In this document: piece by piece, positions 4,041 through 22,384 of the stretch | How the letters are laid out: each line of letters starts with the position of its first letter | Position numbering within the stretch: the stretch's first letter is position 1 | The notes under the pieces: model-generated | The model's database searches: none | Told to the model about the DNA's origin: nothing | Seen by the model: only the letters and a program-made list of their open reading frames with translations | Program-made: the position numbers and the translations under genes | Assembly (NCBI RefSeq): GCF_000022265.1 | Contig: NC_011979.1 | Location: 3,630,001 to 3,662,000 of the forward strand | DNA from: Geotalea daltonii FRC-32 | Lineage (GTDB): Bacteria; Desulfobacterota; Desulfuromonadia; Geobacterales; Geobacteraceae | DNA: 32,000 bases | Direction: 5' to 3'

Positions 4041-4287
4041 TACGTCCCTTCCCTCATTCACAATACATTTAGATCAGGCGGCGATTTCACCCTTTATACA
4101 TCACATGCAGCAGAATTCAATACGCAAAAAACAACAAGTATTCGTAGCATTGTAACGTCATAGCGTCAAGACGTTGCATGCATGGTATGTTATTGAGAAA
4201 GTCGGTAAGTCGATCTTGCTTTTAAATATGGAATCACAAAACCAGTAGTACCACAACGTTTAGCTTGACAACACAGCTAGTTACAAA

Positions 4288-4317
4288 GAAAGCCGGTTCT
4301 GGTATGAACCGGCTTTC
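4288..4317 (-). terminator. Rho-independent terminator closing the giant-protein operon
   Basis: A perfect 12-bp stem, GAAAGCCGGTTC (4288-4299) and GAACCGGCTTTC (4306-4317), with a 6-nt loop. It starts 25 nt after the stop at 4342 and on the minus strand is followed by TTTGT. Confidence 0.75.
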
Positions 4318-4341
4318 CTGTAGATCCATTTCCATACGGTA

Positions 4342-7300
4342 CTACTGCTTCTGATACCACCTGCCTGAAAAGCTTACCAGCAGCTTGTCCAGCTCCCTCC
4401 TTATAGGGGCGGTATCAACAGTATGAATATCCACCATTGCACCGATCGCTTTAAGCAACTCGTGAATTATTGCATCTAATTCGATAACGGTGTACGAGGC
4501 CTGTATCGTTACCTTACTCATTGCTGTTAGTGCTGTTGCAACATTTGCATTTTCTTCATTGGTAAGCGGATAAAGGTTGGCAAGCTGCATTCTTACTATA
4601 TCAATTGACTCTGCCGTATCACTGGATATTGCCGGCGCAACCGCATAACGTCCAGTCTCATCCCAGATACCGTCAACGGAATAACTGATGCTGCTTTCAA
4701 GGGTATACTCCCCCTTCTCAACCGGCAACTGAGCGTAATAGAGCATGGTCTTCTTCTCGTCCGGCATCAGCATGAGATTGTAAACCCATGGGTTATCAGT
4801 AATCCATTGACCCGACGCCGGATCGAACAATCTCACACCGGCAGGGTACGACTCGCTGATCTTCAGGCTGAATTCGTCAGCCAGGCTTTTTACCGTGAGT
4901 TCAACCGGAACCATCTGCCCCGGTCCGTAAGAGACGGTTGAAGCCGGCTGATGGATATGGCGGAAAGCATTGGTCAGGAGCTGGGCAAAGGCATCATAGT
5001 TGCGACTGGTCATGCCCAGGTCGAAGCCAAGGAACACCACATTGCCCAAGCCATACTGTCGCACGATCACAGCCGGATACCTGGTCGGTTTGTTGTTGCT
5101 AACCTCGGTGATCCACCCGACAACCTCAGCAGGATTGACCGCTTCCACCTTGATCGACCGGCCATAGGACTGCAGGCTGCCGGCAGCGGAGATCGGACTT
5201 GACGCTAATTCCACAAGGTAATCGCTTCCCGAAGCTACTCCTATGGTCTTGATGCCAAACATCGCCTCGTTCAGATTGTTCCTGGTAAACGGCGAGGAGA
5301 TCAGCCCTTTCCCGCGATTTACTTGCTCTCGCAATTCTTCAGAGAAGTGGTCCTCGGTGGGAAGCTGATCGCCAAGGATGAGGTAATCAGTATAGATTTG
5401 ATTGCGGATTTCACGTTCGAAATCTTTCTTGTCGGTTACGATGGTATAAAGCACCCCGGCCTCGCGGAGCGCCCGCTCCACAGGTGGCCGCTCAGGACAG
5501 TTCTGGCCGCTTGTCCAGGGGTAGTCGAGCCATACAAGTACGTTGCCGATACCCGAAACAGCTTTCGTCACCTCAAGTTTAGGCTTAACGGGAACGACCA
5601 CTTCGAAATTGGCGCGGGCCAGAGTCTTGGTTTGAGAGCTCCCTGAAAGGGTTGCTTTCAGGAAGGCTGCGTAGGTGCCGACGTTGAGCCCGGCAGTGGA
5701 AACGGTCAGGTTATCGGCACTGGTTGCCCCCATCGGCAGCGTAATGGACGCAGGCAGGGTTTGTTTCACCTCCATGGTGACAGCATCGGCAATGACTATG
5801 CTTAGTGCAAGATTGAACAGATCTTCATTACCAGTATTGGTCACCGTATAGGCGATTTTCTCCTCTAGCCCCTGATATACCGGACTTGGCTGGGCGGTTA
5901 TGGTGCCGCTGACCCCTACCCCGGTTGCGGATGTACCCAGGATGTCGAATGCGGTGGAGGAAGTGGTGAGCAGGCCGGAGGCGTCACTCACCTCAAGCTG
6001 TGCCATATATTTCCCTTTGGCATGGGAGCCGCTGTTCCAGTCGCTCCTCAGGTCGGTGCTCTGCCCCTGCAGCAGCGTCTTGATCACTTTATCATCGGAA
6101 AAGACCTTGTTACCGGCGCTGTCGGTAACGGTTACGCGCGCAGTAAGATCTTGCAGTACGTAGTTAGGGCTCGTACTCCGAATGGTGGAAGTTATAACCA
6201 CCGGTTGATAGGAGACATACGCGGCCTTGTCGCTGCTGATGTTAGATGTGGCGCTTCTCTCCGGAGTCACTTTAAAGGGGGCGAAGGATTCTCCTACCTG
6301 TTTGCCGTTGTCGAGAAGAAGCAGATGAGCCCTGTAGTCACCCGGGTAGCTGGTCCCGGTATTGTAGGTTACGGTAAAGCTTTGCGGGGTGCCGACGGCG
6401 AAGGGGACGGCCGGGCGGGTTTCCTGCCCCAGGACATTCCCCATTGCGTCCTCTATAAGGATTTTGACGTCGACTGAACGCTGGTACTGCCCCACGTTTT
6501 TCACGGTTGCACTGACCAGCGCATCTGCATTGGGACCATAAGACGGTTTGTCCGTCGCAATTGCAGTTTCGAAAGCTGATGTCAGCACCTGGGCCAAAAG
6601 GGAGCCTAACTCGGTGCGGACCGGCTGACCGTTCACGGCGTTGTACAGCAGTTCCACCTTATGGGTCACCAACCGTTGCTCGCCGGGGACAGGATTTTTC
6701 AGGATGACGTCGAAGGCGATATCGGTCGACAGATCGGCAGGAAAGCTGTCATATCGCCATTCGATCACCGTGGTGTCTTCGAGGTTCGTCACGCTGTAGG
6801 GGGCTTTGGTGAACGAGTTGGTATCAACCTGGATATCCTTGGTCGAAACGGTATCGATAATCCGGACAGCGGTCAAGGTCGGTACCAGCGACAAGGTGAT
6901 GGGTGAGAGCACTTCATTGCCGACGCCGTCCGTTACCCGGAGCAAGCCGCTTCCCGGCAGAGCCGAATCTATCAAGGTCACACTGAAGCCAACCGACAGT
7001 GCACCCGGCACAAAGGCAAGAGTGGTCAATTTGAGGTTGTTCGCCCCCGGCTCCAGCTCAATTTTGAAGACACCGGTATCACGGTCCAGGTATCCGTTGC
7101 CGTTAAGATCTTCTCCGGCATCCAGCTTGCCGTTACCATTCACGTCTTCACTGCGACGATCGACCACGCCGTTGCCGTTCAGGTCCTCTCCCGCATCGAG
7201 CACACCGTTGGCATTGATATCCTCGCTATCGGTAGCGGTCCCCCAGATAGTGTCGTTTATCTGGTTCAGTCTGACATTTGGCGCGTAGGTATCCCCCATG

Positions 7301-8598
7301 GGATTGATGAACTCGTAGGCCATCCCTCCGGGATACCCATAGGAATCGTAACTGCCGAAACCGTAGACATAGATGCCGAAGGGGACACTCCCTGTGATGG
7401 TATGAGACCCGAGGCTGATGGGAACCTGCCCGCCGCTGAATCCGCTGGAGCCGACCGGGGAAAACAGCGCGGCATTGACCGGTGTGCCGTCAAGCAGCAG
7501 AGACGACACCGACGAGGTCGGGACCACGACATTGACATAATTCCTGCTGAACCCGCCGGACGGAGTGCTGAAGGTGTACTGGTTCAAGAACTGCTCAGTC
7601 GGTGGAATGAGCATCATGAAAGGGTCCGAGACCACACCATCGAAATCCTGTCCCGCAGAGTATTGGGACACCAGTACCGGCGCACTGGCCTCGATTTGGG
7701 AGCGAGCAGTCAAGATTTTCTCGAAAAATCTCCCGCGGTTGATCGTCGCAGCCAAGGCGCCATTGATGTACACCTTGGTGTCATCTTGGGAAGCAAGGAT
7801 CCTGTAGGGATCACCCTTCAAACGCGTCGCCAGGGGAACCGTCAGGAACGATTTTCCCCAGGTGGCGACCGGAGGCATCATTTCCACAATGTGGTCACAG
7901 GCCCAATAACCCACCGGAACGTTGACGCATTGCACACCGCTCATGACCGACACCGGTGCCGTCGCGGTCACAATGGTTCCGGTCAGGTCTGCGGTGCCGG
8001 AGCCGCGAACCTCATAGGTGTCGCCGCGATTGAGCCGGATGGTGTACGGGACCCCTGCCGCCCTGCCGTCGGCCGCATTCGAGGGAGTGATGGTGACTTC
8101 GGTATTATCATACGCCCCAACAACCGCAACCTGAGACGGCTCATACTGTATGTTTAAGCCGTTATAGCTCATGGCTATATACTCCAGCCCCAGAATGTCG
8201 GTCGGAAGAGCCAGGAAGGCATCGGTTGAAGCAGTCCTTTGATTGAGGGCGTATATGGTCACTTCCTTTTGCGCCGTCACGTGGATACCCAGCCTAGCAA
8301 CCACGTTGCTTCCCAACCGTTGCGCTGATTCTGGAATGCTGATGGTGGTAACCTGGTTTGCCACAACGGTGAAGGTGGTACTGAAATTTATGCCCGCTAT
8401 TTCAACGACACCCTGAGTATCCTCCTTGCCGGTTATGAACAGAGCAAGGTTGGAGGTATTGGTGTAGTTTTCCTGAAAGGCGAAATAGAAGTCTTTGCCT
8501 GAGCTGTCGGAAGCCGCCCGTGATGCCACCGGCATCGTCAACAGCAGGGCAAAAAACGCGCTGAAAAGAAATTTCAATGTATGTTGAGTGGCTCTCAT
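4342..8598 (-). CDS. Giant secreted protein 3 (1418 aa): IgGFc-binding-protein-N-terminal-like domain, acidic Ca-binding loop repeats, beta-sandwich (CARDB/MG-like) modules, and a possible GATase1-like module
   Basis: The ATG at 8598 overlaps the upstream stop (ATGA, 8595-8598). Sec signal: MRATQHTLKFLFSAFFALLLTMPVASRA|AS. Residues ~33-430 carry GKDFYFAFQEN, WACDHIVEMMPP..WGK, DPFMMLIPPTEQ and YVYGFGSYDSYGYPGG. Residues 457-507 hold four D/N-x-N-G-N-G-x-x-D loops. Residues ~1000-1200 (VLVWLD...YDYLILGD...GKGLI...GLGNVVFLGFD) resemble a class I glutamine-amidotransferase-like fold, which is a weak by-eye call. Confidence 0.85.
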   Translation of the reverse strand: MRATQHTLKFLFSAFFALLLTMPVASRAASDSSGKDFYFAFQENYTNTSNLALFITGKEDTQGVVEIAGINFSTTFTVVANQVTTISIPESAQRLGSNVVARLGIHVTAQKEVTIYALNQRTASTDAFLALPTDILGLEYIAMSYNGLNIQYEPSQVAVVGAYDNTEVTITPSNAADGRAAGVPYTIRLNRGDTYEVRGSGTADLTGTIVTATAPVSVMSGVQCVNVPVGYWACDHIVEMMPPVATWGKSFLTVPLATRLKGDPYRILASQDDTKVYINGALAATINRGRFFEKILTARSQIEASAPVLVSQYSAGQDFDGVVSDPFMMLIPPTEQFLNQYTFSTPSGGFSRNYVNVVVPTSSVSSLLLDGTPVNAALFSPVGSSGFSGGQVPISLGSHTITGSVPFGIYVYGFGSYDSYGYPGGMAYEFINPMGDTYAPNVRLNQINDTIWGTATDSEDINANGVLDAGEDLNGNGVVDRRSEDVNGNGKLDAGEDLNGNGYLDRDTGVFKIELEPGANNLKLTTLAFVPGALSVGFSVTLIDSALPGSGLLRVTDGVGNEVLSPITLSLVPTLTAVRIIDTVSTKDIQVDTNSFTKAPYSVTNLEDTTVIEWRYDSFPADLSTDIAFDVILKNPVPGEQRLVTHKVELLYNAVNGQPVRTELGSLLAQVLTSAFETAIATDKPSYGPNADALVSATVKNVGQYQRSVDVKILIEDAMGNVLGQETRPAVPFAVGTPQSFTVTYNTGTSYPGDYRAHLLLLDNGKQVGESFAPFKVTPERSATSNISSDKAAYVSYQPVVITSTIRSTSPNYVLQDLTARVTVTDSAGNKVFSDDKVIKTLLQGQSTDLRSDWNSGSHAKGKYMAQLEVSDASGLLTTSSTAFDILGTSATGVGVSGTITAQPSPVYQGLEEKIAYTVTNTGNEDLFNLALSIVIADAVTMEVKQTLPASITLPMGATSADNLTVSTAGLNVGTYAAFLKATLSGSSQTKTLARANFEVVVPVKPKLEVTKAVSGIGNVLVWLDYPWTSGQNCPERPPVERALREAGVLYTIVTDKKDFEREIRNQIYTDYLILGDQLPTEDHFSEELREQVNRGKGLISSPFTRNNLNEAMFGIKTIGVASGSDYLVELASSPISAAGSLQSYGRSIKVEAVNPAEVVGWITEVSNNKPTRYPAVIVRQYGLGNVVFLGFDLGMTSRNYDAFAQLLTNAFRHIHQPASTVSYGPGQMVPVELTVKSLADEFSLKISESYPAGVRLFDPASGQWITDNPWVYNLMLMPDEKKTMLYYAQLPVEKGEYTLESSISYSVDGIWDETGRYAVAPAISSDTAESIDIVRMQLANLYPLTNEENANVATALTAMSKVTIQASYTVIELDAIIHELLKAIGAMVDIHTVDTAPIRRELDKLLVSFSGRWYQKQ
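7078..7230 (-). repeat. Four tandem 12-13-residue acidic loop repeats (thrombospondin-type-3/EF-hand-like Ca-binding) inside giant protein 3
   Basis: The translated segment is DSEDINANGVLDAGEDLNGNGVVDRRSEDVNGNGKLDAGEDLNGNGYLDRD. This is not the RTX GGxGxD nonapeptide. Confidence 0.7.
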
Positions 8599-11500
8599 TT
8601 CAGCACCTCCCCCTTCAGATGGATGTTTATACGCAGACGCTTGTCGCCGTCAGGGGTCACCTTTGCAGGCGTCAACTGCTGTGTCGGTTCAATGTGGGTG
8701 CCCGGTGCCACCGTAACGGCTTCTCCGGTAAAAACCGCAGGCATCGGTCCGCTTTGCAGCGTCACCTGTACGGGATGCACACCGCTCTGCGTGAAGGTAA
8801 AGGGGAAGGTTTCCAGCTGCAGGGATTTACTCCCTTCGCCGGGCAGTACCGAAATGGTTCCGGTGCCGCTGTGCAGCACGCCTCCGCTTGGGCTCAGCCA
8901 CTGGTAGGCGACTGCCAGCTCGATGGGGACGTTCGAGCGGTTCACCAAGCTTGCCAGTAATGCTATCTGCTCGGTTGCGTTAAAGTTTGCAAAACGCGGC
9001 AGCGGCGTCAGGGTCAGGCTTGCCACCGCCTGGGTCGGAGCCACCGTGAAGAGAGTCGCGCCTTTGGCGGCAACCACCGTCCCGAAGCTTATGCCCGTTT
9101 CCCCTTCGGTGACTTTCAGCACCGCCCGATAAATGCCCGGTTGTCGGTTGCCGGTCTCCCATGGGATAGTGATCACCTTCGGAACCCCCGGTTCGAACCA
9201 TATCAGGGAATTCTGCACCCCGTTGTCATCGGCGGCCGTTGCCAGCAAATTATCCGTTACCTGCCCGTCGGCATCGAGTATGGTCACGCTCACGGTGCCA
9301 GCGATTGCCAGGGTGCCCATGTTAAGAACTTCCGCCTGTATGGAGACCGCTGAGTACGCGGGATAGCTCTGACTATCCGTTTTGAGCGAAGCTATGGACA
9401 AGGAGCTCGCCTGGCTGGGGTTCAGGGGGAAGTTCACCCGGTAGAATCCGTTGGCTGCCGAGGAGACGCTTTGCAACAGGGAGTCGTACCCGGTGACGCC
9501 GGCTCTCAATGAGAAGTCCAGCAGCGTAATACCGGAGATGCTGTAGGCGCCGTTACTGTCGGTTCTGGCAGAGAGGCTGGTACCCGCCACCGTCACCTCG
9601 GCGCCTTCAATCGGGTTGCCGGTCAAAAGGTCGCTGACCACACCGGCTACAGCCGAACTCTCCAGCAGGGGGGTAAGGTAGACGGTCTGGATGTTGGTAG
9701 TTATCCCTTCCACTACGATGACAGTGTAATTCAGGCTGACATGATCAGCTGCGGAAATGGTCACATAGCGTGCGCCGGGGACAACACGGCTGGCATGAAA
9801 GACCCCATCCGCATCGGTATTCACCGAGATTTCCCCAACCACAGTGATGGTCGCACCGGGGATGGGAAGATTGGTCATGGCATCTACCACAACACCGGTG
9901 AATTCCCCTGTGCTGCCTGCAGGGGGCAATTCCTTCAAGGCCCCATTGCTGACCAGCATCCCTCCTGCCTGCACCGTGCCGGTCCCCGTCTGCGGGTAAT
10001 ATCCCGCTTTGGTAATGGCAATGAACACAGGACCAGGTGTTGCCTGGGAAAAGGCATAGGAGCCGTCTGCCTGAGTGACGGTGCTCCCGCTAAAGGAGCC
10101 GCTGACTGTGACTGTTGCCCCCGAAAGCGGCAGATTGGTAGACCCGTCGGTGACGACACCCTTGATGAATCCGGTGGTAGCGCTGGAGGCAAGTGGCAGG
10201 CTGCCGAGATCGAGGATCACGCCGGCGATCATGTCGAGGGTCACGCGGCTCGTCATGTACCCGGAGAGGCTGAAATCAACGGTATGGCTACCGGGAGTAA
10301 CGTCCGGTAGCGAGAAGCCGCCTGCGCTGTCGGTGTTCACCACGACCGGGGGATCACCGGCCAAGGTCACGGTGACGCCGCTCAAGGGATGACTATCGAC
10401 CGCATCCACCACTCGTCCAATGAGAGTGCCGGTAGTTGGCTGGGCTGGTATCGCCTGCAGTTGAGTGTTCAGAGACAGAATCCATCCTGCCATGAGAGTT
10501 ACCGTACCTGTCGTGGGATAGTAGCCGTTCTTGACTACACTCAGGGTCCGGTCTCCTGTAATAAGTTCCGGAAAGAGGAAGCTGCCATCGGTTCCTGAAA
10601 TGCCTGTCAGGCCGGCTCCGTCGACCGTGATGGTCGCCCCTTCAATCGCCTTGCCGGTTGCCGCATCGGACACCGTCACTTTCAGCACGCCGGTGGTCGG
10701 GTTGGAAGAGAGAGGGAGCGTGCCGAGATCCAGGGAAAAACCGGCTGTGCTGGTGATCTTTGCGACAGCCGCCGAATATCCCGGCAGGGAAAAATCCACA
10801 GCCTGGTCACCGACCGGGATATTGCTCAACAGGAAACTGCCGGTGGCATCTGTTACGGTACGGACAGCCGAATCATTTTGCAGGGTCAGCACGACCCCAC
10901 TTAACGCTTCCTTCGTGGTGGCGTCCACCACCCTGCCGGTTATGGTACCTGTGTCCGGCTGAGGCGGTATCAGGACCAGCTGCGGAGTGAACAGCAGCAA
11001 GCCACCTGCGGAAATCGATCCACTCCCTGTAGCCTGGAAATATCCGGCTTTAGATGCAGTAACAGTCACGCTTCCGGGAGTGACCTCCGGAAAGAGGTAA
11101 GTCCCGTCAGCACCGGTTATGGCTGTGCCATTGAAGGAGCCGGTAACGGCAACGGTCACTCCTGCCAGCGCTTGCCCATCGGCGGCATTGGTGATGGTGC
11201 CTTTTATAACGGCCGACGTCGGATTCAGAGAGAGCGGCAGATCCCCGAGATTGAGCAGAGCTCCGGCTGCCACCTCTACGGCTGCGGTCCCTGAAGCATA
11301 CCCGGTTAAGGTCACCTCCAGCTGCTGACTCCCAGCCGGTATGGCCGTGAGAGTAAAACTACCTGAAGCGTCGGTGGTCGCTTTGATCGAGCCATTGCTG
11401 CCAAGAGTCACAACAGCGCCAGTCAGCGGCAGTTTGCTTGCTGCATCAACCACTTTTCCGGTCACGGTCCCGGTAGTCGGTTGCGGTGGAATCGCGGTCA

Positions 11501-14435: not shown

Positions 14436-14454
14436 GTTCCCTCCACGACAGTGT

Positions 14455-14838
14455 CTATTTAACCGGCTGGGCCTCAACCGGGATGCTGAAGGTCCCTGTT
14501 GCCGTTAGCGGCCGGTGCTCACCGGATGTTTTGCGAATTTTTTCGATTCTCTGCACGCCGTTATCGAGGATCAGAAAAACTGTCTCCACCCCTTGGTCCG
14601 TTGTTTCCTCAACGACGATTTTTCCCTTGGTAATATCAGAGACTTTCGCCCCTTTTCCCAATTCGTCACCGATCTTTAGCAGGTGAAGTATGCCATCCGC
14701 AGACTTGACCGTAGCCAAACGGTCCTGGGCTGATATCTTCACGATCTTGATTGTTTTAAGCGATAGCGGAGCGGTTTCCTGCGCCAGCACAGGAAGGGGC
14801 AGTAGCACTAAAATCAGCAGCAAAATGCTTTTAATCAT
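14455..14838 (-). CDS. Small secreted protein (127 aa), function unknown; faint PilP/GspC-HR-like beta-domain pattern
   Basis: AAGGAG lies 9 nt upstream of the ATG. Signal: MIKSILLLILVLLPLPVLA|QE. The core ...KISAQDRLATVKSADGILHLLKIGDELGKGAKVSDITKGKIVVEE...ETVFLIL resembles the pattern 'A.v....G....l.vGd.l..ga.V..I....vvl' seen in PilP and GspC homology regions. This is a weak call. Confidence 0.75.
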   Translation of the reverse strand: MIKSILLLILVLLPLPVLAQETAPLSLKTIKIVKISAQDRLATVKSADGILHLLKIGDELGKGAKVSDITKGKIVVEETTDQGVETVFLILDNGVQRIEKIRKTSGEHRPLTATGTFSIPVEAQPVK

Positions 14839-14912
14839 TAACTAAACTCCTTGGTATCCTGTTCTTTAGGATGACGTTTAAGCCAAAACCATCTTAACAA
14901 GCAGCTTGTGAT

Positions 14913-15395
14913 TCAATTGTTGTCAACAGGTTTTCCGTTCATGGTCCAGACTGCTCCATAGCGTTTTTTCTGATAGTTTTCGTAGGAGTGGTTATAATCT
15001 CCCACGACCTTGTTCCCTTTGTACAAAAAATCGGCATGCATGTGAATCGGAGCGGTCCACTCCTTCCAATCGGTTGTGGAACGGACGTGCAAGGTAAGGC
15101 ACTGCTTTGCGTTGGGAGGCAGATCCCCTTTCCAGTGCAGATCACCATCGAGTAACTTCAATTCCGGCGGCAGAGATACTTTGATATTCACGTTGGATAA
15201 TGGCTCTACAAAGGAATTCAGACATAAGTCGAAACTATTTTCACTCCCTTTGTGAGCACCGAGACTGCCGGAATACCCCATATCGAACTTGATCATGATC
15301 TCATGGTCAGCCGGAGACCATCCTTCCTCATCGCAACCGGCCAAAGCTGAAACGCATATTAGAAGTACAATGATAAATTTCTTCGCAAAAACCAT
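14913..15395 (-). CDS. Lipoprotein B (160 aa), paralogue of 15506..15988; beta-sandwich-like, function unknown
   Basis: Starts at ATG 15395 (the track's GTG at 15398 is one codon upstream), with GAGGAG upstream. The lipobox is SALAG|CDEEG, with Asp at +2. About 70% identical to the upstream paralogue, sharing GCDEEGWSPADHE, NVNIKVSLPPELKL.DGDL.WKG and KQCLTLHVRSTT.WK.W. Confidence 0.88.
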   Translation of the reverse strand: MVFAKKFIIVLLICVSALAGCDEEGWSPADHEIMIKFDMGYSGSLGAHKGSENSFDLCLNSFVEPLSNVNIKVSLPPELKLLDGDLHWKGDLPPNAKQCLTLHVRSTTDWKEWTAPIHMHADFLYKGNKVVGDYNHSYENYQKKRYGAVWTMNGKPVDNN

Positions 15396-15403
15396 CACTC
15401 TCC

Positions 15404-15495
15404 TCAGTTCAAACAGAAAGACAGATCCAGGTTCTCATCCAGATCGGCCCTGCTCTGGAATACCTGGCCCGCAGCACCTATGACATGACGGCGTT
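15404..15495 (-). pseudogene. Relic of the last ~25-30 codons (plus stop and SD) of a giant-TGase-gene copy, left by tandem duplication
   Basis: The minus strand of 15404-15478 reads GAAGQVFQSRADLDENLDLSFCLN*. The true C-terminus of the 1709-aa gene (15996-16070) reads GSAGQVFQSRAKLNEDLDITFCLN*. Nucleotide identity is about 85% by eye. Upstream of 15478 the frame is broken by an indel and a TAG. Homology ends near 15496-15500, immediately after the stop of lipoprotein A. Confidence 0.75.
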
Positions 15496-15505
15496 TACAT
15501 CTTGT

Positions 15506-15988
15506 TCAGTCGTTTCTGATCTGTTTTCCGTTCATTGTCCAGACTGCTTCATTGCGGTTTTTCTGAGTGTCATCGTAGGACACGTTATAATTCCCCACAA
15601 CGTTGTTCCCCTTGTACAAAAACTCAGAATGCATATTAATCGGTGTGGACCAGTCCTTCCATTCGGTGGTGGAACGGACATGCAGGGTAAGACACTGCTT
15701 CGCGTAGGTAGGCATGTTGCCTTTCCAACGTAGATCCCCGTCGACTAACTTCAATTCTGGCGGCAATGAAACCTTAATGTTTACATTAGATAGCGGGTCG
15801 GCAAATGACATTAGGCATAAATCGAAACTGTATCCATTACCTTTGTGAGCGCCAACACCGCCGGAATACCCCATTTGGAATTTTGTCAACACTTCATGGT
15901 CAGCCGGAGACCATCCCTCCTCATCACAACCAGCCAGTAAGGTCAGGCCGACAATTAACACCATTATCCACTGCTTGATAAAAAACAC
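15506..15988 (-). CDS. Lipoprotein A (160 aa), paralogue of 14913..15395
   Basis: GTG start at 15988, 7 nt after the giant gene's TGA; that TGA is part of the SD context (AAC TGA GGAAAAG GTG). The lipobox is TLLAG|CDEEG, with Asp at +2. The rest aligns along its whole length with lipoprotein B. Confidence 0.88.
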   Translation of the reverse strand: MFFIKQWIMVLIVGLTLLAGCDEEGWSPADHEVLTKFQMGYSGGVGAHKGNGYSFDLCLMSFADPLSNVNIKVSLPPELKLVDGDLRWKGNMPTYAKQCLTLHVRSTTEWKDWSTPINMHSEFLYKGNNVVGNYNVSYDDTQKNRNEAVWTMNGKQIRND

Positions 15989-15995
15989 CTTTTCC

Positions 15996-18900
15996 TCAGT
16001 TCAAACAAAAAGTTATATCCAGGTCCTCATTCAACTTGGCCCTGCTCTGGAATACCTGCCCCGCACTTCCCAGGACGGCGTTTGAGCCAAAGCCAACCTG
16101 GAGTACAGCGGCCCTTTTTCCGAACAGATCATTCTGAAACCATTTCCAATCGTAGACGTCGGTTACCGTTCCGACGACATGCACACCGTTGATACATAAA
16201 TGTCCAGATTGATCTTCAAGATTGGCATTAATAGTGGTAAGTTCAACTGTTGCCGTCCCGTAGGCCAAGCCAAGATCGTTCAGAATAAACTTGCCGGCAA
16301 TACGTTCCCTGAAGTCTAAGGAAACTGCGTTAGCAAAAGTCGGATAAAGCTGGCCCGGATTAGCGTTAAACCAGGCAACCATTTTCGCCTTCTCGTTACG
16401 CAAAGTCGAATCTATCAACCCTCTGACACTAGGAGCATTGGCAATCTTGGCCATCATCTCCGGGCCTCTTGCTATGTTTTTGTCATAGACTAATTCCGGA
16501 ATGTCCGCCGAGCAGTCCGCCCTCAGGTAAGCCCCTGAATTAAGGTCAAGCTGTCCAGCCGCTAACGGGGCTGTACCTATCGGCCGTAATGGCTGGATCG
16601 GCGCATCAGCCCCCTCACCGATAAACTGCATCAGGAAGGAGGAACCCATCGGTTTTTCCAGTACGCCGGTGGCGCTAAGCAGGAAATAAAGACCCTGCAT
16701 CTCCAAGGGCATGGTCATTACCAGAGCAGCACACGCCGCGTCAGGCCTGGCGATACACTTGAGCCATTGCCTGCTCAGTTCAAAGTCAGCTTTCGAGATC
16801 ACCGTAACAGTAAAGGTGCGTACAATATTGTCACCGGAATCAAAGACGCCGTTGCCATTGATGTCGACACCGACAGATAGCTTATAATCCCGTGTCACGA
16901 GCGCGGAAATGTCGCTGAACGGATCGCCGGACGTGAAGCTTCCCGATTCGGGGAAGGCACTATTTGGAAACGCACTGAAACCCCAGACAAGTTCTGGAGC
17001 CGCACCAGGAGGATCGAGCTCCACGTGCATAGCCACTCGCGCTTTATTGGACGGATCGACGCCAATCACCAGGCTGTCCATCAATTTACCCGGCGCCTGG
17101 TTACAAGGGTTATTGGCATCGTAAGCTTTGACGGTGTTCACGCTGCTTAAAACAACTGGTTTCTTGTCGCCGCGAAGTTCTATGTCCCCCCATCCGTAAT
17201 TCAACACCACTGTTGCATCATAGCTGCTGTTGGTGTCATACCAGAAGCCTTTAGATAAAGTCGCGAAGCCGTTCCCGCTCACTTCCGTGGGGATTGACGC
17301 TATGGTCTCACCATTTTTGGTAATCACCACGTAGGCCGACCCAGCCTTATAGTCGGCAGGTTCAATGGAATAGGCAGCCTTCACGTCGTTGTACGAATAC
17401 CCCTTAATATCCAGGAAAGCCCGGGTTGGCGTTTTCGACACGATTTTGACACCGTATACCGGGATGTTTATGCCGGTGGTTGCTGTAAAATCGACGGTCT
17501 GAATGACATTGCACAATTGGCAAATGGAATAAGTCTTTCTCCCTGAGACGGTGGCCGTCGCCGAAACGGCTACATTGTTGAGCCCCGGAGCCAGGGTATA
17601 TAGCCCCCGGTAAAGCCCTCCCCCCAGGTTGACTCCCGGTTGTCCGCCGAAAGTCACCGTTGCCGATTTGAAATTGGTGTCTATCCGATACTGCCTGTTG
17701 CCGACGATTTTCGTGCAGGTCCTCGGACCGCTGCAATTAAGGGTTTCCAGAATCTCCTTTTCCCCTTCGCGCAAATAGAAAACTCTCGCCTTCAGGGGGA
17801 CGGCAGTACCTGCCTTACCGGCATATATGTTGTTTCCGGCGCTATCTACAGGTTTCGAATAGGTGACGTACAACATGTTGGCTGGCGGCTGATCTCCTCC
17901 ACAATTGCCGTAAGGCTCAGTGGACTGGGTGAATGTCTCTGTCAAATTTCCGGAAGTAACAATGACACTGTATGTGGCATCAGGGACCCCACCCAAAATC
18001 ATGTCGACCGACGCCCCTTGCTTGCTGCTGATATCCTGTAGAGTCATGGTTGGAGTTCCACATTGTCCCCATACCGGAAGATTGGCTGTACAGGTATCCC
18101 CCGTCTTAATCAGGTACCCTTGCCTGCTATCCTGGTTGGGGAGAGTGCAGGTCGAAAGGTTTGATCTGGCGGCCTGCAAGGCAAACTTCACCACACTGTT
18201 GGATATGGGGTTGTCGTACATATCTTCAACCATCACCGACAATGAGCCGGTGTGGGACAGGATCGGCCTGGTTATGTCGTCCCCCAAGGTCTTTTTCAGG
18301 TGGTGAGGGGTTTTGGGAAAGGCATAGGCGGTAAACGGCTTGGCAGTGGGAATTCCTGATGCCAGGGTGGCGTCGATTATGTTTTCGCCGATCTGCTGCG
18401 CGTAGGTATAGCCGTCCTCCCACCAGTAGGTCGGGTTCGCCCCGGTCTTCTCTCCCACAGTCGGGCTGACTGAGGCAATCCCGGCGCGGTTGGTATAGGT
18501 GGTGTAGGATCCTGAATTATAAGCCAGATGGCCCCCTCCTGCACGCACAGTGAAGGTTACGGGGGCATTTTGCACCGCTCTTCCCTGTTTATCGGTAACC
18601 CTTACCTGCAGCCACTTGGGCAGTCTCTCCCCGACCTTCACAAACTGCAAATCTCCTGTCATCTTCTGGATAAACAACGCTGCGTTTTGATCGGGATTGG
18701 GGGGCTCTGTAAAAGGGGTGGTCAGCATGCTCGCATAATAGGCGGGCCACCGGTCGATGCCCCACGCAGTCATCCCGCCGGCTATCATACCGCTTAACAT
18801 GTAGCCGGCCTCGCCGGTCGCAGGATTCTCTTTGATGTATCCGGTACCTGTCCAATCCTGAAAGGAGGTAGCAGCTGCGGGTATTCTTACCAGATAATTT

Positions 18901-21125
18901 TGGGCCACGCTCTGGGTTATATCGGCTTTAATTGCGTCGTCATATGAAAGCGTCGGAAGTACCGTATCGATATTGGTGGAGTCAATGGTCAGCACCTGGC
19001 CCCCCAGTTCTTGGAAAAGCCGCGCCGTCGATATTGCCCCGACCTGAAAATCATCCTCGAACAGCCTGTGCTCCAGCACCGACCCCTGCAGTGCGGAAAA
19101 GAGCATGAAATCCTTCCGTTTTGCCGCAGCAGAGTCGCCGGCGCCTTTTGCCGCTCCAGGATAGATCCGCCGCAGGGCTGCATCCAGGTATACCCCCTTC
19201 CAGGCGAAGCCATGGGGGGTATCGAGGATGTATGAGACATCGATCACGCCACCCAAAATGGCCACCGACGGTATGGGGCGTGCCATCGAGAGGTGCAACA
19301 GTGAAGAGAGTTGCTCCTCAGCTTCATACCAGCGACGGGCGTAGTTTTCCGCCTCCTCAAGCAGAATTCGTTCAGCGTCCACATCCTCCGGTTTGACTTC
19401 CGGCAGAGTGATGGTTTTCTGTGCAACAACAGAGAGCACCGACAGGTTTCCTACGATGTGATTGCCGCTGACAGTCTCGGTTCCACGTGGGCCGACCAGG
19501 GAAACAGTCACGGTGTAATCGCTTCCCATGGGTAGTCCGTCGGTCGCCACCACCATCCGCTCCCCATCCAGCTTCAACACCGGACGCAACCTCACCAGAT
19601 AACTCGGAGTGTTGTCGAGGCCGCCGTAGGAGCTTATTATCTGCTGGTCTTCGACGTTCTCCGGCTCATAGCTTAAAACCAGGCTGCGGTTGGAAACTTT
19701 GAAGGTATCGATAGTGGTTTCGAAAAGTTGCTTGCCATCCCGGTCCGCGGCGGTCACTTTCACCTTGTGGAGCAGCTCATCCGGAATGCTCGAAAGCTCC
19801 TGTGTCACTTTGATTTCTCGAAATTGCAAACTGGCTGGGAGGATTTTGAGCAGTTCCGGTGCGTGGGTCCGGACTCGCAGTAAATTGGCATAGACCAGTT
19901 CCGGATGATTGGTAGTCAAAAAGTCTTCGATTTTTGTTTGGAGAAATTCGACAGGGGTCTGCTGCGACGGCGCGGATAAATAAAGATCACGAGTATCGGC
20001 AAGGGAGATCTCGGGCATGAGATCCCTTGGCGCGTTCCACTGATAGTCGCCACCTTTGATACTCGTGTCCAGGGCGATCCAGGTCCGGCCGGCGCCATCC
20101 TTCATGGTGCCGCGGTAATTCAGATAGGGAACCTGAGTTTCTACCCAGACGTGCTCTATCTGAAAATTGTCTATTTTCGAGCCTGATATGAGCGGCCTGT
20201 ATGGAATCCCCGCATGCCTGAAAAAATTCGCGATCTCCAATGGGTCGTCGATTCCGGTCAAATTCTTCACCCGCTCCATGCCGGGAAAAAACTCTATCAC
20301 ACCTTTGACGTACCGAGCCGGATAACCGGAAGCCCTCAGCAGGGAAACAAGTAGTGCCGCCTGATCACAGTCATTGCCACTTTTCTGGCGCATGGTCTCC
20401 TCTGCGCCCTTCATGCTACCCCAGTACCACTCGGTTTCCACGTTGTTCTTTACCCACTCATAGATGCCGACCGGGTTCCAGTCCAACGATTGTGCCAGAG
20501 CCGCAATTTCCCTGGAAATCGGCGCCTCAGGGGAACCCTTCAGATCAGCGGCACCGACCGCAGTAGCTGCACCATTCCGGTAGGCCGGCAGTAGCGAGGG
20601 GGCATCCGTCGGCTCCACCGCAGGATAATTGATAACTTTGTACGGAAGGGTCCCGAGAATCTGTGTCTTTTTCTTGGGAAGCGAGGTATCGAGAAGCAGT
20701 TCAAGCCTGGCCGCAGCTGAGTCGCTGATCGCCTCGCCTGCCGGTATTTGCTCAAATATGGAGATGATTTCCCCTAGCGCTGCGCGGTAGCGCTCGTTCA
20801 TGGCGTTATGCCGCTCCACTGCAGTTGCAGATACCGATTTTGTCCGTTCCTCTGCCAGTCGGAACCGTTCCGACAGAATCAGGTCTACGGCCTTGATCTG
20901 CTGCAGCAGTTGTTTCAGTAACGCTGTCTCGGTAGCCGTATACCTGCCGGTTTCCCGCATCTTTTTGATGACGGCCCGGCTTTTTTCCGAGATTCCTTGC
21001 AGGTCCTCCTCGATATTGAAGTCCGCTGCGTAAATGAGCATTGGACTGAGAAGGCTGACCAGCAGAATGAGAAGCTGGAAAAAAGGCATGTTTACAGAGC
21101 CAAGGAAGCTGTTTATCGTTTTCAT
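15996..21125 (-). CDS. Giant secreted protein 1 (1709 aa) with transglutaminase-like cysteine-protease core, Big_1-like Ig modules and an unassigned ~320-aa C-terminal domain
   Basis: GAGGGA lies upstream of the ATG at 21125. Signal: ...FFQLLILLVSLLSPMLIYA|AD. The TGase core (about 20046-20513) shows GNDC(253)DQAALLVSLLRASGYPARYVKG, IEH(325)VWVE and IALD(353)TS; the Cys codon is at 20367-20369. Big_1-like segments include LQVRVTDKQGRAVQNAPVTFTVRAGGG and LSVMVEDMYDNPISNSVVKFAL. One DINGNGVFDSGDN loop is present. I cannot place the C-terminal ~320 aa in any family. Confidence 0.88.
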   Translation of the reverse strand: MKTINSFLGSVNMPFFQLLILLVSLLSPMLIYAADFNIEEDLQGISEKSRAVIKKMRETGRYTATETALLKQLLQQIKAVDLILSERFRLAEERTKSVSATAVERHNAMNERYRAALGEIISIFEQIPAGEAISDSAAARLELLLDTSLPKKKTQILGTLPYKVINYPAVEPTDAPSLLPAYRNGAATAVGAADLKGSPEAPISREIAALAQSLDWNPVGIYEWVKNNVETEWYWGSMKGAEETMRQKSGNDCDQAALLVSLLRASGYPARYVKGVIEFFPGMERVKNLTGIDDPLEIANFFRHAGIPYRPLISGSKIDNFQIEHVWVETQVPYLNYRGTMKDGAGRTWIALDTSIKGGDYQWNAPRDLMPEISLADTRDLYLSAPSQQTPVEFLQTKIEDFLTTNHPELVYANLLRVRTHAPELLKILPASLQFREIKVTQELSSIPDELLHKVKVTAADRDGKQLFETTIDTFKVSNRSLVLSYEPENVEDQQIISSYGGLDNTPSYLVRLRPVLKLDGERMVVATDGLPMGSDYTVTVSLVGPRGTETVSGNHIVGNLSVLSVVAQKTITLPEVKPEDVDAERILLEEAENYARRWYEAEEQLSSLLHLSMARPIPSVAILGGVIDVSYILDTPHGFAWKGVYLDAALRRIYPGAAKGAGDSAAAKRKDFMLFSALQGSVLEHRLFEDDFQVGAISTARLFQELGGQVLTIDSTNIDTVLPTLSYDDAIKADITQSVAQNYLVRIPAAATSFQDWTGTGYIKENPATGEAGYMLSGMIAGGMTAWGIDRWPAYYASMLTTPFTEPPNPDQNAALFIQKMTGDLQFVKVGERLPKWLQVRVTDKQGRAVQNAPVTFTVRAGGGHLAYNSGSYTTYTNRAGIASVSPTVGEKTGANPTYWWEDGYTYAQQIGENIIDATLASGIPTAKPFTAYAFPKTPHHLKKTLGDDITRPILSHTGSLSVMVEDMYDNPISNSVVKFALQAARSNLSTCTLPNQDSRQGYLIKTGDTCTANLPVWGQCGTPTMTLQDISSKQGASVDMILGGVPDATYSVIVTSGNLTETFTQSTEPYGNCGGDQPPANMLYVTYSKPVDSAGNNIYAGKAGTAVPLKARVFYLREGEKEILETLNCSGPRTCTKIVGNRQYRIDTNFKSATVTFGGQPGVNLGGGLYRGLYTLAPGLNNVAVSATATVSGRKTYSICQLCNVIQTVDFTATTGINIPVYGVKIVSKTPTRAFLDIKGYSYNDVKAAYSIEPADYKAGSAYVVITKNGETIASIPTEVSGNGFATLSKGFWYDTNSSYDATVVLNYGWGDIELRGDKKPVVLSSVNTVKAYDANNPCNQAPGKLMDSLVIGVDPSNKARVAMHVELDPPGAAPELVWGFSAFPNSAFPESGSFTSGDPFSDISALVTRDYKLSVGVDINGNGVFDSGDNIVRTFTVTVISKADFELSRQWLKCIARPDAACAALVMTMPLEMQGLYFLLSATGVLEKPMGSSFLMQFIGEGADAPIQPLRPIGTAPLAAGQLDLNSGAYLRADCSADIPELVYDKNIARGPEMMAKIANAPSVRGLIDSTLRNEKAKMVAWFNANPGQLYPTFANAVSLDFRERIAGKFILNDLGLAYGTATVELTTINANLEDQSGHLCINGVHVVGTVTDVYDWKWFQNDLFGKRAAVLQVGFGSNAVLGSAGQVFQSRAKLNEDLDITFCLN

Positions 21126-21166
21126 ATTCCCTCGCTAGTTCAGATCAAACCCCTAACTTTGGATAA

Positions 21167-21195
21167 TTAATATTTTGTATATAAAATTTTGTCAA
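21167..21195 (-). promoter_or_regulatory. Candidate sigma70-type promoter of the giant-protein operon
   Basis: On the minus strand: TTGACA (21195-21190), 17 nt, TATTAA (21172-21167), within a strongly AT-rich tract. The implied 5' UTR is about 35 nt. The -10 hexamer lacks the consensus final T. Confidence 0.4.
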
Positions 21196-21544
21196 CAGAT
21201 TAATAAAACATTTTTATATAAATCACTATCCATCATCGTCTGCCTGATCGGCTACGACTGGATCTATCTATAGCGGCCACGAAGAGAATTCCGGGAAAAG
21301 GTTGGTTTACAGCATTCAGTACAGGAGCTGTGATTGCAGGGATATAATAGGTCGCAGAATCGCCGCCGGGCTGGAATAAGATGAAGAATCCTGAGGGGGA
21401 CATCCATGATTAAAATAAAGTAAGTCAAGGGAGTGGTAGTAATTCCCTGGCTCTATAAGCCTAATGAAGATGCAGGACCGGTTTGACATCGCCGGGAACT
21501 ATGCCAGACTTTTTAGTGGGAAGGGGTGCACAAGGAGGAAAAAT

Positions 21545-21832
21545 ATGGCTCAGACAATGCCGAAGATTAAAGTCTGTGACGTTACCGACTGCGCCTACAA
21601 CAATGAGAAAATCTGTCATGCCATGGCAATAACGGTGGGGGATTCTCACCCCACTTGCGATACCTTTACCAATTCATCACAGAAAGCGGGTGTGTCGGAA
21701 ATTACCGGCGGCGTAGGCGCCTGCAAGGTGGACAGCTGCAAGTTCAATCAATCGCTGGAATGTTCCGCCCCCGATATTCAGGTTACTATCCATAAGGACC
21801 ATGCATGCTGCAAAACGTTCACGGAAAGGTAG
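21545..21832 (+). CDS. DUF1540 domain protein (two Cys-rich half-repeats), 95 aa
   Basis: This is the track ORF 21464..21832 trimmed to the ATG at 21545, which is preceded by AAGGAGG (21532-21538). The two modules are CDVTDCAYNNEKICHAMAITVG..HPTCDTF and CKVDSCKFNQSLECSAPDIQVT..HACCKTF. Confidence 0.85.
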   Translation: MAQTMPKIKVCDVTDCAYNNEKICHAMAITVGDSHPTCDTFTNSSQKAGVSEITGGVGACKVDSCKFNQSLECSAPDIQVTIHKDHACCKTFTER

Positions 21833-21880
21833 TTGTGAGCATTTGACAAAAACCACTCCCCCTTCCCGCCTTACCTTATA

Positions 21881-22384
21881 TCAGAACTCCGCGAGGACCA
21901 GCTCTTCCGCGTCCTTGCGGATGGAACGCTGACCAGTGTCTGCAGGATAACCGATGGCTAATACCGCCATCAGCTCCATTTCCGAAGAAACCTGGAGCAG
22001 GCGCCCCACCTCGGCGGCACTTTTGAGGATTTCCCCCAGCCAGACCGCCCCCAGCCCGAGCCCGTGGGCGGCAAGAAGCATGTTCTGCAGGCAGGCGCCC
22101 ATGGCCTGGTGGTCCTTGACATCGTTATACATGACCGTGCGATCGCAAAAAACGGCAATGGCCACCGGTGCACCGCCGATAATGTGCCGGTAACGGGTCA
22201 GGGCTGCCAGCTGCTGCCTTATTTCCGCACTCCTGACGATAACAAACCGCCACGGCTGGTTGTTGAGCCCTGAGGGCGCCCAGGAGCCGGCTTTGACTAT
22301 TTCCAGCACTTGATCCCTGGTTGGTTCTTCATGGGTGTAGCTGCGCACGCTGCGGCGCGAATAGATCCCTTCCATCAAATCCAT
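21881..22384 (-). CDS. Nitroreductase family protein (FMN-dependent)
   Basis: 167 aa. Motifs: RRSVRSYT, APSGLNNQPWRFVIV and GLGAVWLG. GGAGGAAG lies upstream of the ATG. Confidence 0.9.
   Translation of the reverse strand: MDLMEGIYSRRSVRSYTHEEPTRDQVLEIVKAGSWAPSGLNNQPWRFVIVRSAEIRQQLAALTRYRHIIGGAPVAIAVFCDRTVMYNDVKDHQAMGACLQNMLLAAHGLGLGAVWLGEILKSAAEVGRLLQVSSEMELMAVLAIGYPADTGQRSIRKDAEELVLAEF

Follow-up and report, generated by a model that had tools for sequence, protein, structure and literature searches.

What would three giant and three small proteins do together when all six are encoded side by side and a Sec-like signal can be read directly at each N-terminus? The question is raised by a stretch of 32,000 nucleotides (nt) from Geotalea (formerly Geobacter) daltonii FRC-32 (contig NC_011979.1, positions 3,630,001 to 3,662,000; the whole stretch is called the window below), in which an operon of six genes, G1 to G6, has ordinary housekeeping genes as its neighbours. 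From the comparisons set out here, we consider it probable that the operon represents a Sec-dependent polymorphic toxin system for interbacterial competition. Its toxin-immunity core would be a new member of a class already defined by comparative genomics, and a conserved accessory module is what appears to be new. An earlier note on this DNA, made from the letters alone, had listed contact-dependent antagonism among its working ideas, and with the architecture being that of a polymorphic toxin, this idea pointed in the right direction.

The list of open reading frames (ORFs) confirms that six co-directional genes fill positions 4342–21125, as that note had stated. All lie on the minus strand, and their locus tags span Geob_3313 to Geob_3308:

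15996–21125, minus strand: G1 (identical to Geob_3313), 1709 residues, putative Sec-exported polymorphic toxin carrier
15506–15988, minus strand: G2 (identical to Geob_3312), 160 residues, lipoprotein, candidate cognate immunity protein
14913–15398, minus strand: G3, 161 residues, G2 paralogue, candidate second or orphan immunity lipoprotein
14455–14838, minus strand: G4, 127 residues, signal peptide and GspC-HR/PilP-like domain
8595–14435, minus strand: G5, 1946 residues counted from an ATG
4342–8598, minus strand: G6 (identical to Geob_3308), 1418 residues

In the mechanical ORF list G5 runs further, to a TTG at 14477. The Sec or lipoprotein signals that had been claimed for every product are indeed readable, and the summed mass of the three giants (G1, G5 and G6) is 538 kDa. 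From G1 to G6 the junctions measure 7, 107, 74, 19 and −4 nt, the last value being the 4-nt overlap of the G6 start with the G5 stop; only the second had been given differently before, as 110 nt.

Carrier, tip and downstream gene

The G1 homologue set comprises more than 230 strong matches, which align over only about 77% of the length of G1, with residues ~1–1320 conserved and the remainder divergent. In a 24-sequence alignment, invariant and near-invariant columns stop at about residue 1317, after the motif VVLNxGxxxEI (last invariant residue N1309, last near-invariant residue I1317). The C-termini of the relatives comprise Phosphodiest, RHS/YD-shell/DUF6531, PGAP1/DUF676/Lipase_2, Abhydrolase_6 and DUF900 domains, and further carriers end in Ntox16, Peptidase_M23 or the pre-toxin domain PT-TG; PF02369, RHS and YD-shell domains are on record for many G1 homologues. 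The N-terminal ~1320 residues would thus constitute a carrier made of a coiled-coil region, a dead transglutaminase (TGase) fold, an unmatched module and an immunoglobulin (Ig)-like stalk, and G1 can be divided as follows:

19986–20528, minus strand: transglutaminase-like core, predicted inactive, residues ~200–380 (Transglut_core, E 9.7e-12)
18636–19985, minus strand: mid module, residues ~380–830, conserved, no solved-structure analogue found
17166–18635, minus strand: Ig-like stalk, residues ~830–1320, conservation ending at VVLNxGxxxEI
15999–17165, minus strand: variable C-terminal region, residues 1321–1709, no Pfam hit
15999–16670, minus strand: candidate toxin tip, last ~220 residues

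The AlphaFold2 model of the mid module (residues 370–850) is confident, with a mean predicted local distance difference test score (pLDDT) of 84 and a predicted template modelling score of 0.81. A Foldseek search with it returned no meaningful neighbour, the best matches having E 0.12 in the PDB and 5.6e-3 in BFVD, both at a template modelling score of about 0.1. In the stalk, the matches to Big_1 (28.3 bits, cut-off 34.9) and to the macroglobulin (MG) domain MG4 (20.8 bits, cut-off 24.7) are both below the Pfam thresholds.

A 'Cys-His-Asp' transglutaminase core had been read from the sequence, and the fold has stood up to the Pfam search; the Cys nucleophile has not. In the alignment of G1 to the solved TGase-like protein 3ISR, it is Asp252, near-invariant in the family, that occupies the nucleophile slot, and Cys253 lies one residue out of register with the catalytic Cys. 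The Cys253 column contains C, A or S among close orthologues, with Ser in one orthologue that is 84% identical. Since the catalytic Cys of 3ISR aligns with the near-invariant Asp252, the canonical thiol nucleophile is absent across the G1 family, and the domain is predicted to be catalytically dead throughout.

An 'inactive transglutaminase' class of polymorphic toxins has been described by comparative genomics (Zhang, de Souza, Anantharaman, Iyer & Aravind 2012, Biol Direct 7:18; PMC3482391). In its members a signal peptide precedes a TGase domain lacking catalytic residues, to which RHS repeats or Ig domains of bacterial type and a variable toxin are joined; an immunity gene lies next to the toxin gene. 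The class was assigned to the Sec/type II secretion system (T2SS) route, and the dead TGase was proposed to be a peptide binder that anchors the toxin to the cell surface (PMC3482391). With its signal peptide, its TGase domain without Cys, its conserved carrier with diverse C-termini and its co-varying downstream candidate immunity gene, G1 is, judged from sequence, a member of this class. It had been stated before that the domain combination of the operon is not recognisable as a named system. This does not hold for the layout of G1, already a class in PMC3482391, and it does hold for the linkage of G4, G5 and G6, which is found neither in that paper nor in the literature searched. Compared with the class of Zhang et al., the G. 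daltonii tip and the lipoproteins with their CDEEG motif belong to no Pfam or NCBIfam family, and the accessory genes are syntenic across phyla.

The state of the TGase domain also bears on the idea, put forward in the earlier note, that the operon builds a transglutaminase-catalysed, covalently cross-linked envelope scaffold. One could point to the significant Transglut_core match and to His325 and an Asp, which are conserved in the 24-sequence alignment. However, with Asp252 at the nucleophile position, with the adjacent Cys out of register and, in close orthologues, exchanged for Ala or Ser, and with Zhang et al. (PMC3482391) having reached the same inactive-TGase conclusion for the class, we give this idea next to no credence.

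If the variable ends are toxins, one would look for partners that vary with them. Among 40 G1-like genes with complete 3' ends, taken from 80 genome loci, each cluster of the last 300 residues has its own cluster of the first ORF downstream, without exception (10/10, 6/6 and 2/2), and every singleton tip is accompanied by a unique ORF. Hydrolase-type tips are followed by signal-peptide or lipobox proteins, and RHS-type tips by proteins without a signal peptide, one of which is an ankyrin-repeat protein. The same segment is hypervariable between closely related strains, as can be seen in the nucleotide comparison of the window with a metagenomic contig of the same species (L001):

window 14900–5600 (G4 to G6): 99.5% nucleotide identity
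window 18531–16900 (upstream G1): 97.5% nucleotide identity
window 16800–14950 (tip, G2 and G3): 81% nucleotide identity

The GC content has its operon minimum over window positions 14001–17000 (toxin tip, G2, G3 and G4; 0.47–0.51) and is 0.55–0.59 elsewhere, reaching about 0.59 in G5 (9001–13000); the low value of the tip-to-G4 segment is consistent with a horizontally exchanged cassette. In other loci, orphan carrier fragments and arrays of small genes are found. Extra G1-like fragments, truncated and with further small ORFs from the same clusters behind each of them, lie at L025:16932–18350, L037:17833–21960, L070:18938–20449 and L080:7–4090, and by analogy they look like the orphan toxin-immunity arrays of Rhs and contact-dependent inhibition (CDI) loci.

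The lipase, esterase or phosphodiesterase C-termini of many homologues could alternatively belong to a surface-displayed exoenzyme platform for nutrient acquisition, with the small downstream genes encoding chaperones or inhibitors and not kin immunity. Other members, however, bear RHS/YD shells, Ntox16, PT-TG or M23 domains, in one case followed by the ankyrin gene. Moreover, hypervariability of only the tip and downstream genes between near-identical strains, together with orphan cassettes, is usual in conflict systems but not in metabolic ones, which makes a nutritional role quite improbable to us.

A search of a different kind supports the view of the G1 end as an exchangeable domain. In an exhaustive HMMER search with the G1 C-terminus, the last ~215 residues were found 0–48 residues from the C-terminus of ~30 otherwise unrelated proteins, many of which have signal peptides and the N-termini of which are unrelated. 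Judged from these positions, the G1 tip is a mobile domain. Its conserved positions (DL..A.G.A, G...DLYDF and AA..Q.G) suggest no known chemistry.

The products encoded downstream of the tip, G2 and G3, start with an LAGC lipobox followed by Asp-Glu-Glu, so that Asp stands at position +2, and are identical in 111 of 161 residues; neither has a match in Pfam, NCBIfam or PADLOC. In E. coli, Asp at +2 of a lipoprotein signals retention in the inner membrane. By analogy, G2 and G3 are probably retained there, facing the periplasm. Since the immunity candidates are lipoproteins with this retention signal, the toxin may be expected to act on the cell envelope. The spacer between G2 and G3 had been described as filled by a duplication relic, and the local alignment bears this out:

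15401–15497, minus strand: relic of the G1 3' end, ~95 nt, within the 107-nt G2–G3 spacer

This remnant marks a tandem duplication that seems to have taken in the immunity gene as well as the toxin-gene end. A relative locus (L002) has one copy only of the G2/G3-type gene.

Transposase genes were encountered near several of these cassettes. In several loci of Geobacteraceae and relatives, an IS200-like Y1 transposase gene (Y1_Tnp, E 1.6e-17) separates the candidate immunity gene from the G4-like gene. It lies at L029:16866–17537 and at the equivalent spot in L015, L019, L046, L049, L067, L076 and L084, and may have to do with the exchange of cassettes. In Geotalea uraniireducens (CP000698; L004:15379–22852), rve, ISL3 and IS21 transposase genes follow the G1 homologue in place of G4 and G5, and this locus looks disrupted by insertion sequences.

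Accessory genes beside the carrier

The neighbourhoods of the remaining genes of the operon were examined in genome loci anchored on G1 and, independently, in loci anchored on G6. Among 19 G1-anchored genome loci with at least 5 kb on either side, 13 share one layout, in which a G1-like gene is followed by one to four variable small ORFs, a G4-like gene and a G5-like gene. In 12 further loci a second layout is found, with a giant of more than 3300 residues, ending in a G6-like middle part and C-terminal modules, directly upstream of the G1-like gene; these giants bear Big_13, F5_F8_type_C and FlgD_ig domains. The hosts of the G1-anchored loci belong to Geobacterales, Desulfuromonadales, Desulfobulbales, Smithellaceae, Nitrospirota/Thermodesulfovibrionales, Myxococcota and Bacteriovoracaceae. 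In the G6-anchored search, a toroid gene lies directly upstream of full-length G6 in all 19 loci, overlapping it by 4 nt as in the window in 17 of them, and a TGase-carrier gene is adjacent in 12, with most of the others stopping at a contig edge. About 60 loci that share the IgGFc_binding domain alone served as an internal negative control and have none of the toroid or carrier neighbours. Taken over all loci, toroid and IgGFc_binding genes adjoin TGase-carrier toxins in Desulfobacterota, Nitrospirota, Gammaproteobacteria (including Vibrio harveyi) and others. As the earlier note had required of its hypothesis, a conserved unit thus occurs outside G. daltonii.

Two forms of this unit can be told apart. 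The short form, present in most G6-anchored loci, has a toroid protein of ~900–1100 residues without HExxH domain, no G4, and a carrier of ~1030–1110 residues that lacks the Ig stalk and ends in Ntox16, Peptidase_M23 or PT-TG. The long form adds G4 and an invariant HExxH domain to the toroid/IgGFc_binding set. On plasmid pA of Spartinivicinus, a gene annotated as 'prenyltransferase/squalene oxidase repeat' lies directly 5' of a TGase-RHS toxin. In a Vibrio harveyi assembly (L086), a short cassette of toroid, IgGFc_binding and TGase-carrier genes stands between integrase genes (5177–6142 and 21166–22086). It adjoins a DUF927/HTH_17 block, and from this setting it appears to be on a mobile island. 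Its G6-like and carrier genes are separated by a pAdhesive_15 (choice-of-anchor A) gene.

The paper that defined the class names no genes as a neighbourhood signature of the Sec/T2SS route and mentions no toroid/prenyltransferase, IgGFc_binding or GspC/PilP-like partner (PMC3482391). Our literature search covered the locus tags, PF17517/IgGFc_binding in bacteria, TGase in connection with interbacterial toxins, and 'squalene oxidase repeat' combined with RHS. On accessory genes accompanying toxins it gave nothing relevant beyond papers of the Aravind group, its coverage being incomplete, so that 'undescribed' is a provisional term. Within this scope, the toroid and IgGFc_binding set, conserved alongside TGase carriers across phyla, appears to be a new part of these systems.

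The domains of the two giants can be given as follows:

G5, minus strand, residues ~41–390 (HEMMH at 13911–13925): HExxH domain with a single HEMMH motif
G5, minus strand, residues ~390–650: toroid, SQHop_cyclase/Prenyltrans above Pfam thresholds
G5, minus strand, remainder: 12 CarboxypepD_reg modules above Pfam thresholds, C-terminal beta-sandwiches
G6, minus strand, residues 126–413: IgGFc_binding domain (E 2.9e-80), preceded by a signal peptide
G6, minus strand, residues 460–505: four DxNxNGxxD Ca loops, followed by Ig/MG/CARDB-like sandwiches
G6, minus strand, residues ~1000–1418: ThuA/GIFT-like alpha/beta domain, beta-sandwich and helical bundle

Most of the domain readings made from the letters alone were borne out, namely the prenyltransferase/terpene-cyclase-like toroid, all twelve CarboxypepD_reg stretches, the IgGFc-binding domain and the Ca-loop repeats. 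The CARDB/MG-like sandwiches do give matches, including weak ones to MG2, all of them below the Pfam cut-offs. In 14–15 homologues of G5 the HExxH(R)W motif is invariant, as are H171, E172, H175 and a downstream HWS. The HExxH domain and the toroid are 45–60% identical across loci and are the sole conserved parts of G5, the remainder being variable, and the repeat regions of G5 and G6 vary in length from ~900 to more than 6000 residues between loci. One G5-like protein of 6151 residues from Nitrospirota (L003:17778–26318) has added CARDB, FlgD_ig, F5_F8_type_C and Tricorn-like beta-propeller domains. The G6 C-terminus, modelled at pLDDT 90, contains an alpha/beta domain of the ThuA-like/GH42-trimerisation/IFT52-GIFT type and has no conserved Cys or His among homologues; these features fit a module for binding or assembly better than an enzyme. 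Two other assignments were rejected: an S-layer protein, as the NCBIfam match to Kustd1514 (267 bits, cut-off 1400) is driven by the CarboxypepD_reg repeats, and a SusC-like transporter, the match being an artefact of the same repeats.

The small protein of the long form, G4, shows a likeness to components of secretion and pilus machinery. When a profile built from 12 homologues is searched against the PDB, the three best matches are GspC (7OIO, E 0.011) and PilP (2Y4X, 2LC4), all within E 0.011–0.031. Against Pfam, eight of the 12 members match T2SSC and six match PilP, always sub-threshold, and G4 as a single sequence has a weak, sub-threshold match to PilP only (E 0.046). NCBIfam and PADLOC gave no hits for G4.

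Since the toroid fold is shared with complement-type proteins, the earlier note had also considered an alpha-2-macroglobulin-like protease-trapping or defence module. The likeness lies in the MG-like sandwiches and the alpha/alpha toroid of the locus, with weak matches to TED_complement, MG4 and MG2. In bacterial alpha-2-macroglobulins, however, these domains are not spread over three proteins as here, where there is neither a thioester Cys nor a bait region. G5 contains no cysteine at all, which precludes a CxEQ thioester, and the C.EQ motif is absent from G1, G5 and G6. The best matches of the toroid are terpene-cyclase and prenyltransferase repeats; TED_complement (18.2, cut-off 22) stays below its Pfam threshold as MG4 does, and PADLOC hits are lacking. 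A trapping function can hence hardly be upheld.

More serious is the view that G1 to G3 form a toxin-immunity set and that G4 to G6 are merely co-regulated with it, as giant adhesins or matrix proteins that create cell-cell contact or aggregation, or as receptor-binding partners, and not as a delivery machine. Most of G5 and G6 does consist of modules of the adhesin type (CarboxypepD_reg, CARDB/MG-like sandwiches, Ca loops and IgGFc_binding), their repeat regions vary widely in length, and the giants of the second layout add Big_13, F5_F8_type_C and FlgD_ig. The conservation across loci, however, lies in the toroid, HExxH, IgGFc_binding and ThuA-like domains and not in the repeats, and a synteny that is tight though permuted in order, as well as the kept 4-nt overlap of G5 and G6, speaks for a stoichiometric complex that includes the carrier. 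We therefore regard an adhesin role as rather unlikely.

A comparison with better known systems places the locus further. With CdiB/CdiA/CdiI of the type V secretion system it shares a giant filamentous carrier, a motif-bounded exchangeable C-terminal toxin, a cognate immunity gene and orphan relics, but the two-partner secretion (TPS) domain and the CdiB/FhaC beta-barrel are absent from the six proteins in Pfam and NCBIfam searches. With Rhs/YD-repeat toxins, many G1 homologues have in common an RHS/YD shell, inserted here between carrier and tip; in G1 of G. daltonii RHS repeats are absent, and the context is neither PAAR/VgrG nor TcA/TcB. The MafB/MafI/MafA systems of Neisseria are likewise Sec-exported, with a conserved N-domain, a variable C-terminus, downstream immunity, orphan cassettes and an accessory envelope protein. 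Their sequences are unrelated, the N-domain is DUF1020 and not a TGase, and MafA is a small lipoprotein in contrast to the two giant multidomain accessories found here.

Signals and surroundings of the operon

The following signals were found at the ends of the operon:

21167–21195, minus strand: candidate sigma-70 promoter (TTGACA, 17-nt spacer, TATTAA), read by eye, ~40 nt 5' of the G1 ATG
4283–4318, minus strand: intrinsic terminator hairpin with U-rich tail, 24 nt past the G6 stop

The upstream promoter candidate that had been claimed is visible in the sequence, but was not listed by the consensus scan because its −10 hexamer lacks the final T, and the number of sites in the promoter and terminator scan of the region is no higher than in shuffled sequence. 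The strong downstream terminator, also claimed before, is well supported: the hairpin (about 4289–4316) has a folding free energy of −25.3 kcal/mol (z = −7.7), equalled in none of 200 shuffles. A weak terminator-like hairpin of seven pairs, three of them GC, lies at 15424–15445 on the minus strand, within the relic of the G1 3' end in the G2–G3 spacer; it could attenuate read-through into G3–G6 or mean nothing. About 340 nt upstream of G1, a divergent gene (21464–21832, plus strand) encodes 122 residues with two DUF1540 repeats. Rfam and tRNA scans of the window gave no matches, and PADLOC had no hits among the operon proteins.

A possible delivery route and its meaning

Several observations weigh against the reading of the operon as a toxin system with a dedicated accessory module. 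As regards toxicity, Pfam, NCBIfam and PADLOC gave no match for the last ~390 residues of G1, and the tip shows no recognisable catalytic motif. In ten other tip-bearing proteins, Pfam found no RHS, PAAR, LXG or TPS trafficking domains and only weak TSP3 and DUF7151 hits; since such domains are missing, the argument for a mobile tip is one of position and not of known carriers. As regards the accessories, six of the 19 well-flanked G1 loci have no accessory gene within 10 kb, and the TGase-RHS toxins on Burkholderia and Methylomonas plasmids stand alone, without accessory neighbours. Because several plasmid-borne TGase-RHS toxins do so, the accessories are not obligatory for every inactive-TGase toxin, and we rejected the assumption that all of them need G5 and G6. 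As regards delivery, no outer-membrane conduit, secretin or beta-barrel is encoded in the operon, as had already been noted, or in the flanks within the window. The likeness of G4 to GspC and PilP is marginal (E 0.01–0.03, below the Pfam cut-offs). The metallopeptidase-like domain proposed before for G5 keeps its single, invariant motif; sequence and profile searches of the HExxH domain against the PDB and Pfam returned no peptidase family, only the first toroid repeat and noise. Reprolysin_3 is matched by two of 14 members (E 0.007), and the first ~390 residues of G5 have no match in Pfam, NCBIfam or PADLOC.

The architecture, the polymorphism, the pairing of tip and downstream gene, the hypervariable cassette and the synteny are seen in the sequences themselves; toxicity and the place where the toxin acts, like everything proposed for G4, G5 and G6, are inferred, and may be put together as follows. 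G1 would be exported by Sec and would carry, in its last ~220 residues, an exchangeable toxin domain with the cell envelope as its target, G2 would be the cognate immunity protein, and G3 a diverged tandem duplicate. Since their translational coupling is conserved, G5 and G6 may form a stoichiometric envelope or surface complex. This complex would hold the carrier, plausibly via the dead TGase domain, and export, display or process it. G4, as a GspC/PilP-like adaptor, may connect this complex with a secretin whose gene lies elsewhere, and the HExxH domain of G5 may release the tip. One could speculate further that G5 and G6, joined in the long form by G4 and the HExxH domain, represent a dedicated, previously unrecognised export or display pathway for Sec-dependent polymorphic toxins, with the dead TGase domain and the mid module serving for docking and a secretin encoded elsewhere as the outer-membrane conduit. 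We offer this pathway as a tentative proposal, possible but short of probable. If it were true, it would be a new route of toxin delivery common to Desulfobacterota, Nitrospirota and marine Gammaproteobacteria.

To our knowledge, no class of polymorphic toxins is less well understood in its delivery than the Sec/T2SS-dependent one, and we know of no account of how such giant proteins get through the outer membrane or to an adjacent cell. A conserved and translationally coupled partner pair provides concrete candidates for the missing machinery, and some of the carrier hosts are culturable and genetically tractable, for example Vibrio harveyi, in which the cassette lies on an apparent integrase-flanked island. 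The locus further adds a candidate toxin tip family and a candidate lipoprotein immunity family, both without a Pfam match, as well as a confidently modelled module of 450 residues without a solved structural analogue. Finally, six 'hypothetical' genes of Geotalea would gain a testable role in the competition among subsurface metal-reducing bacteria.

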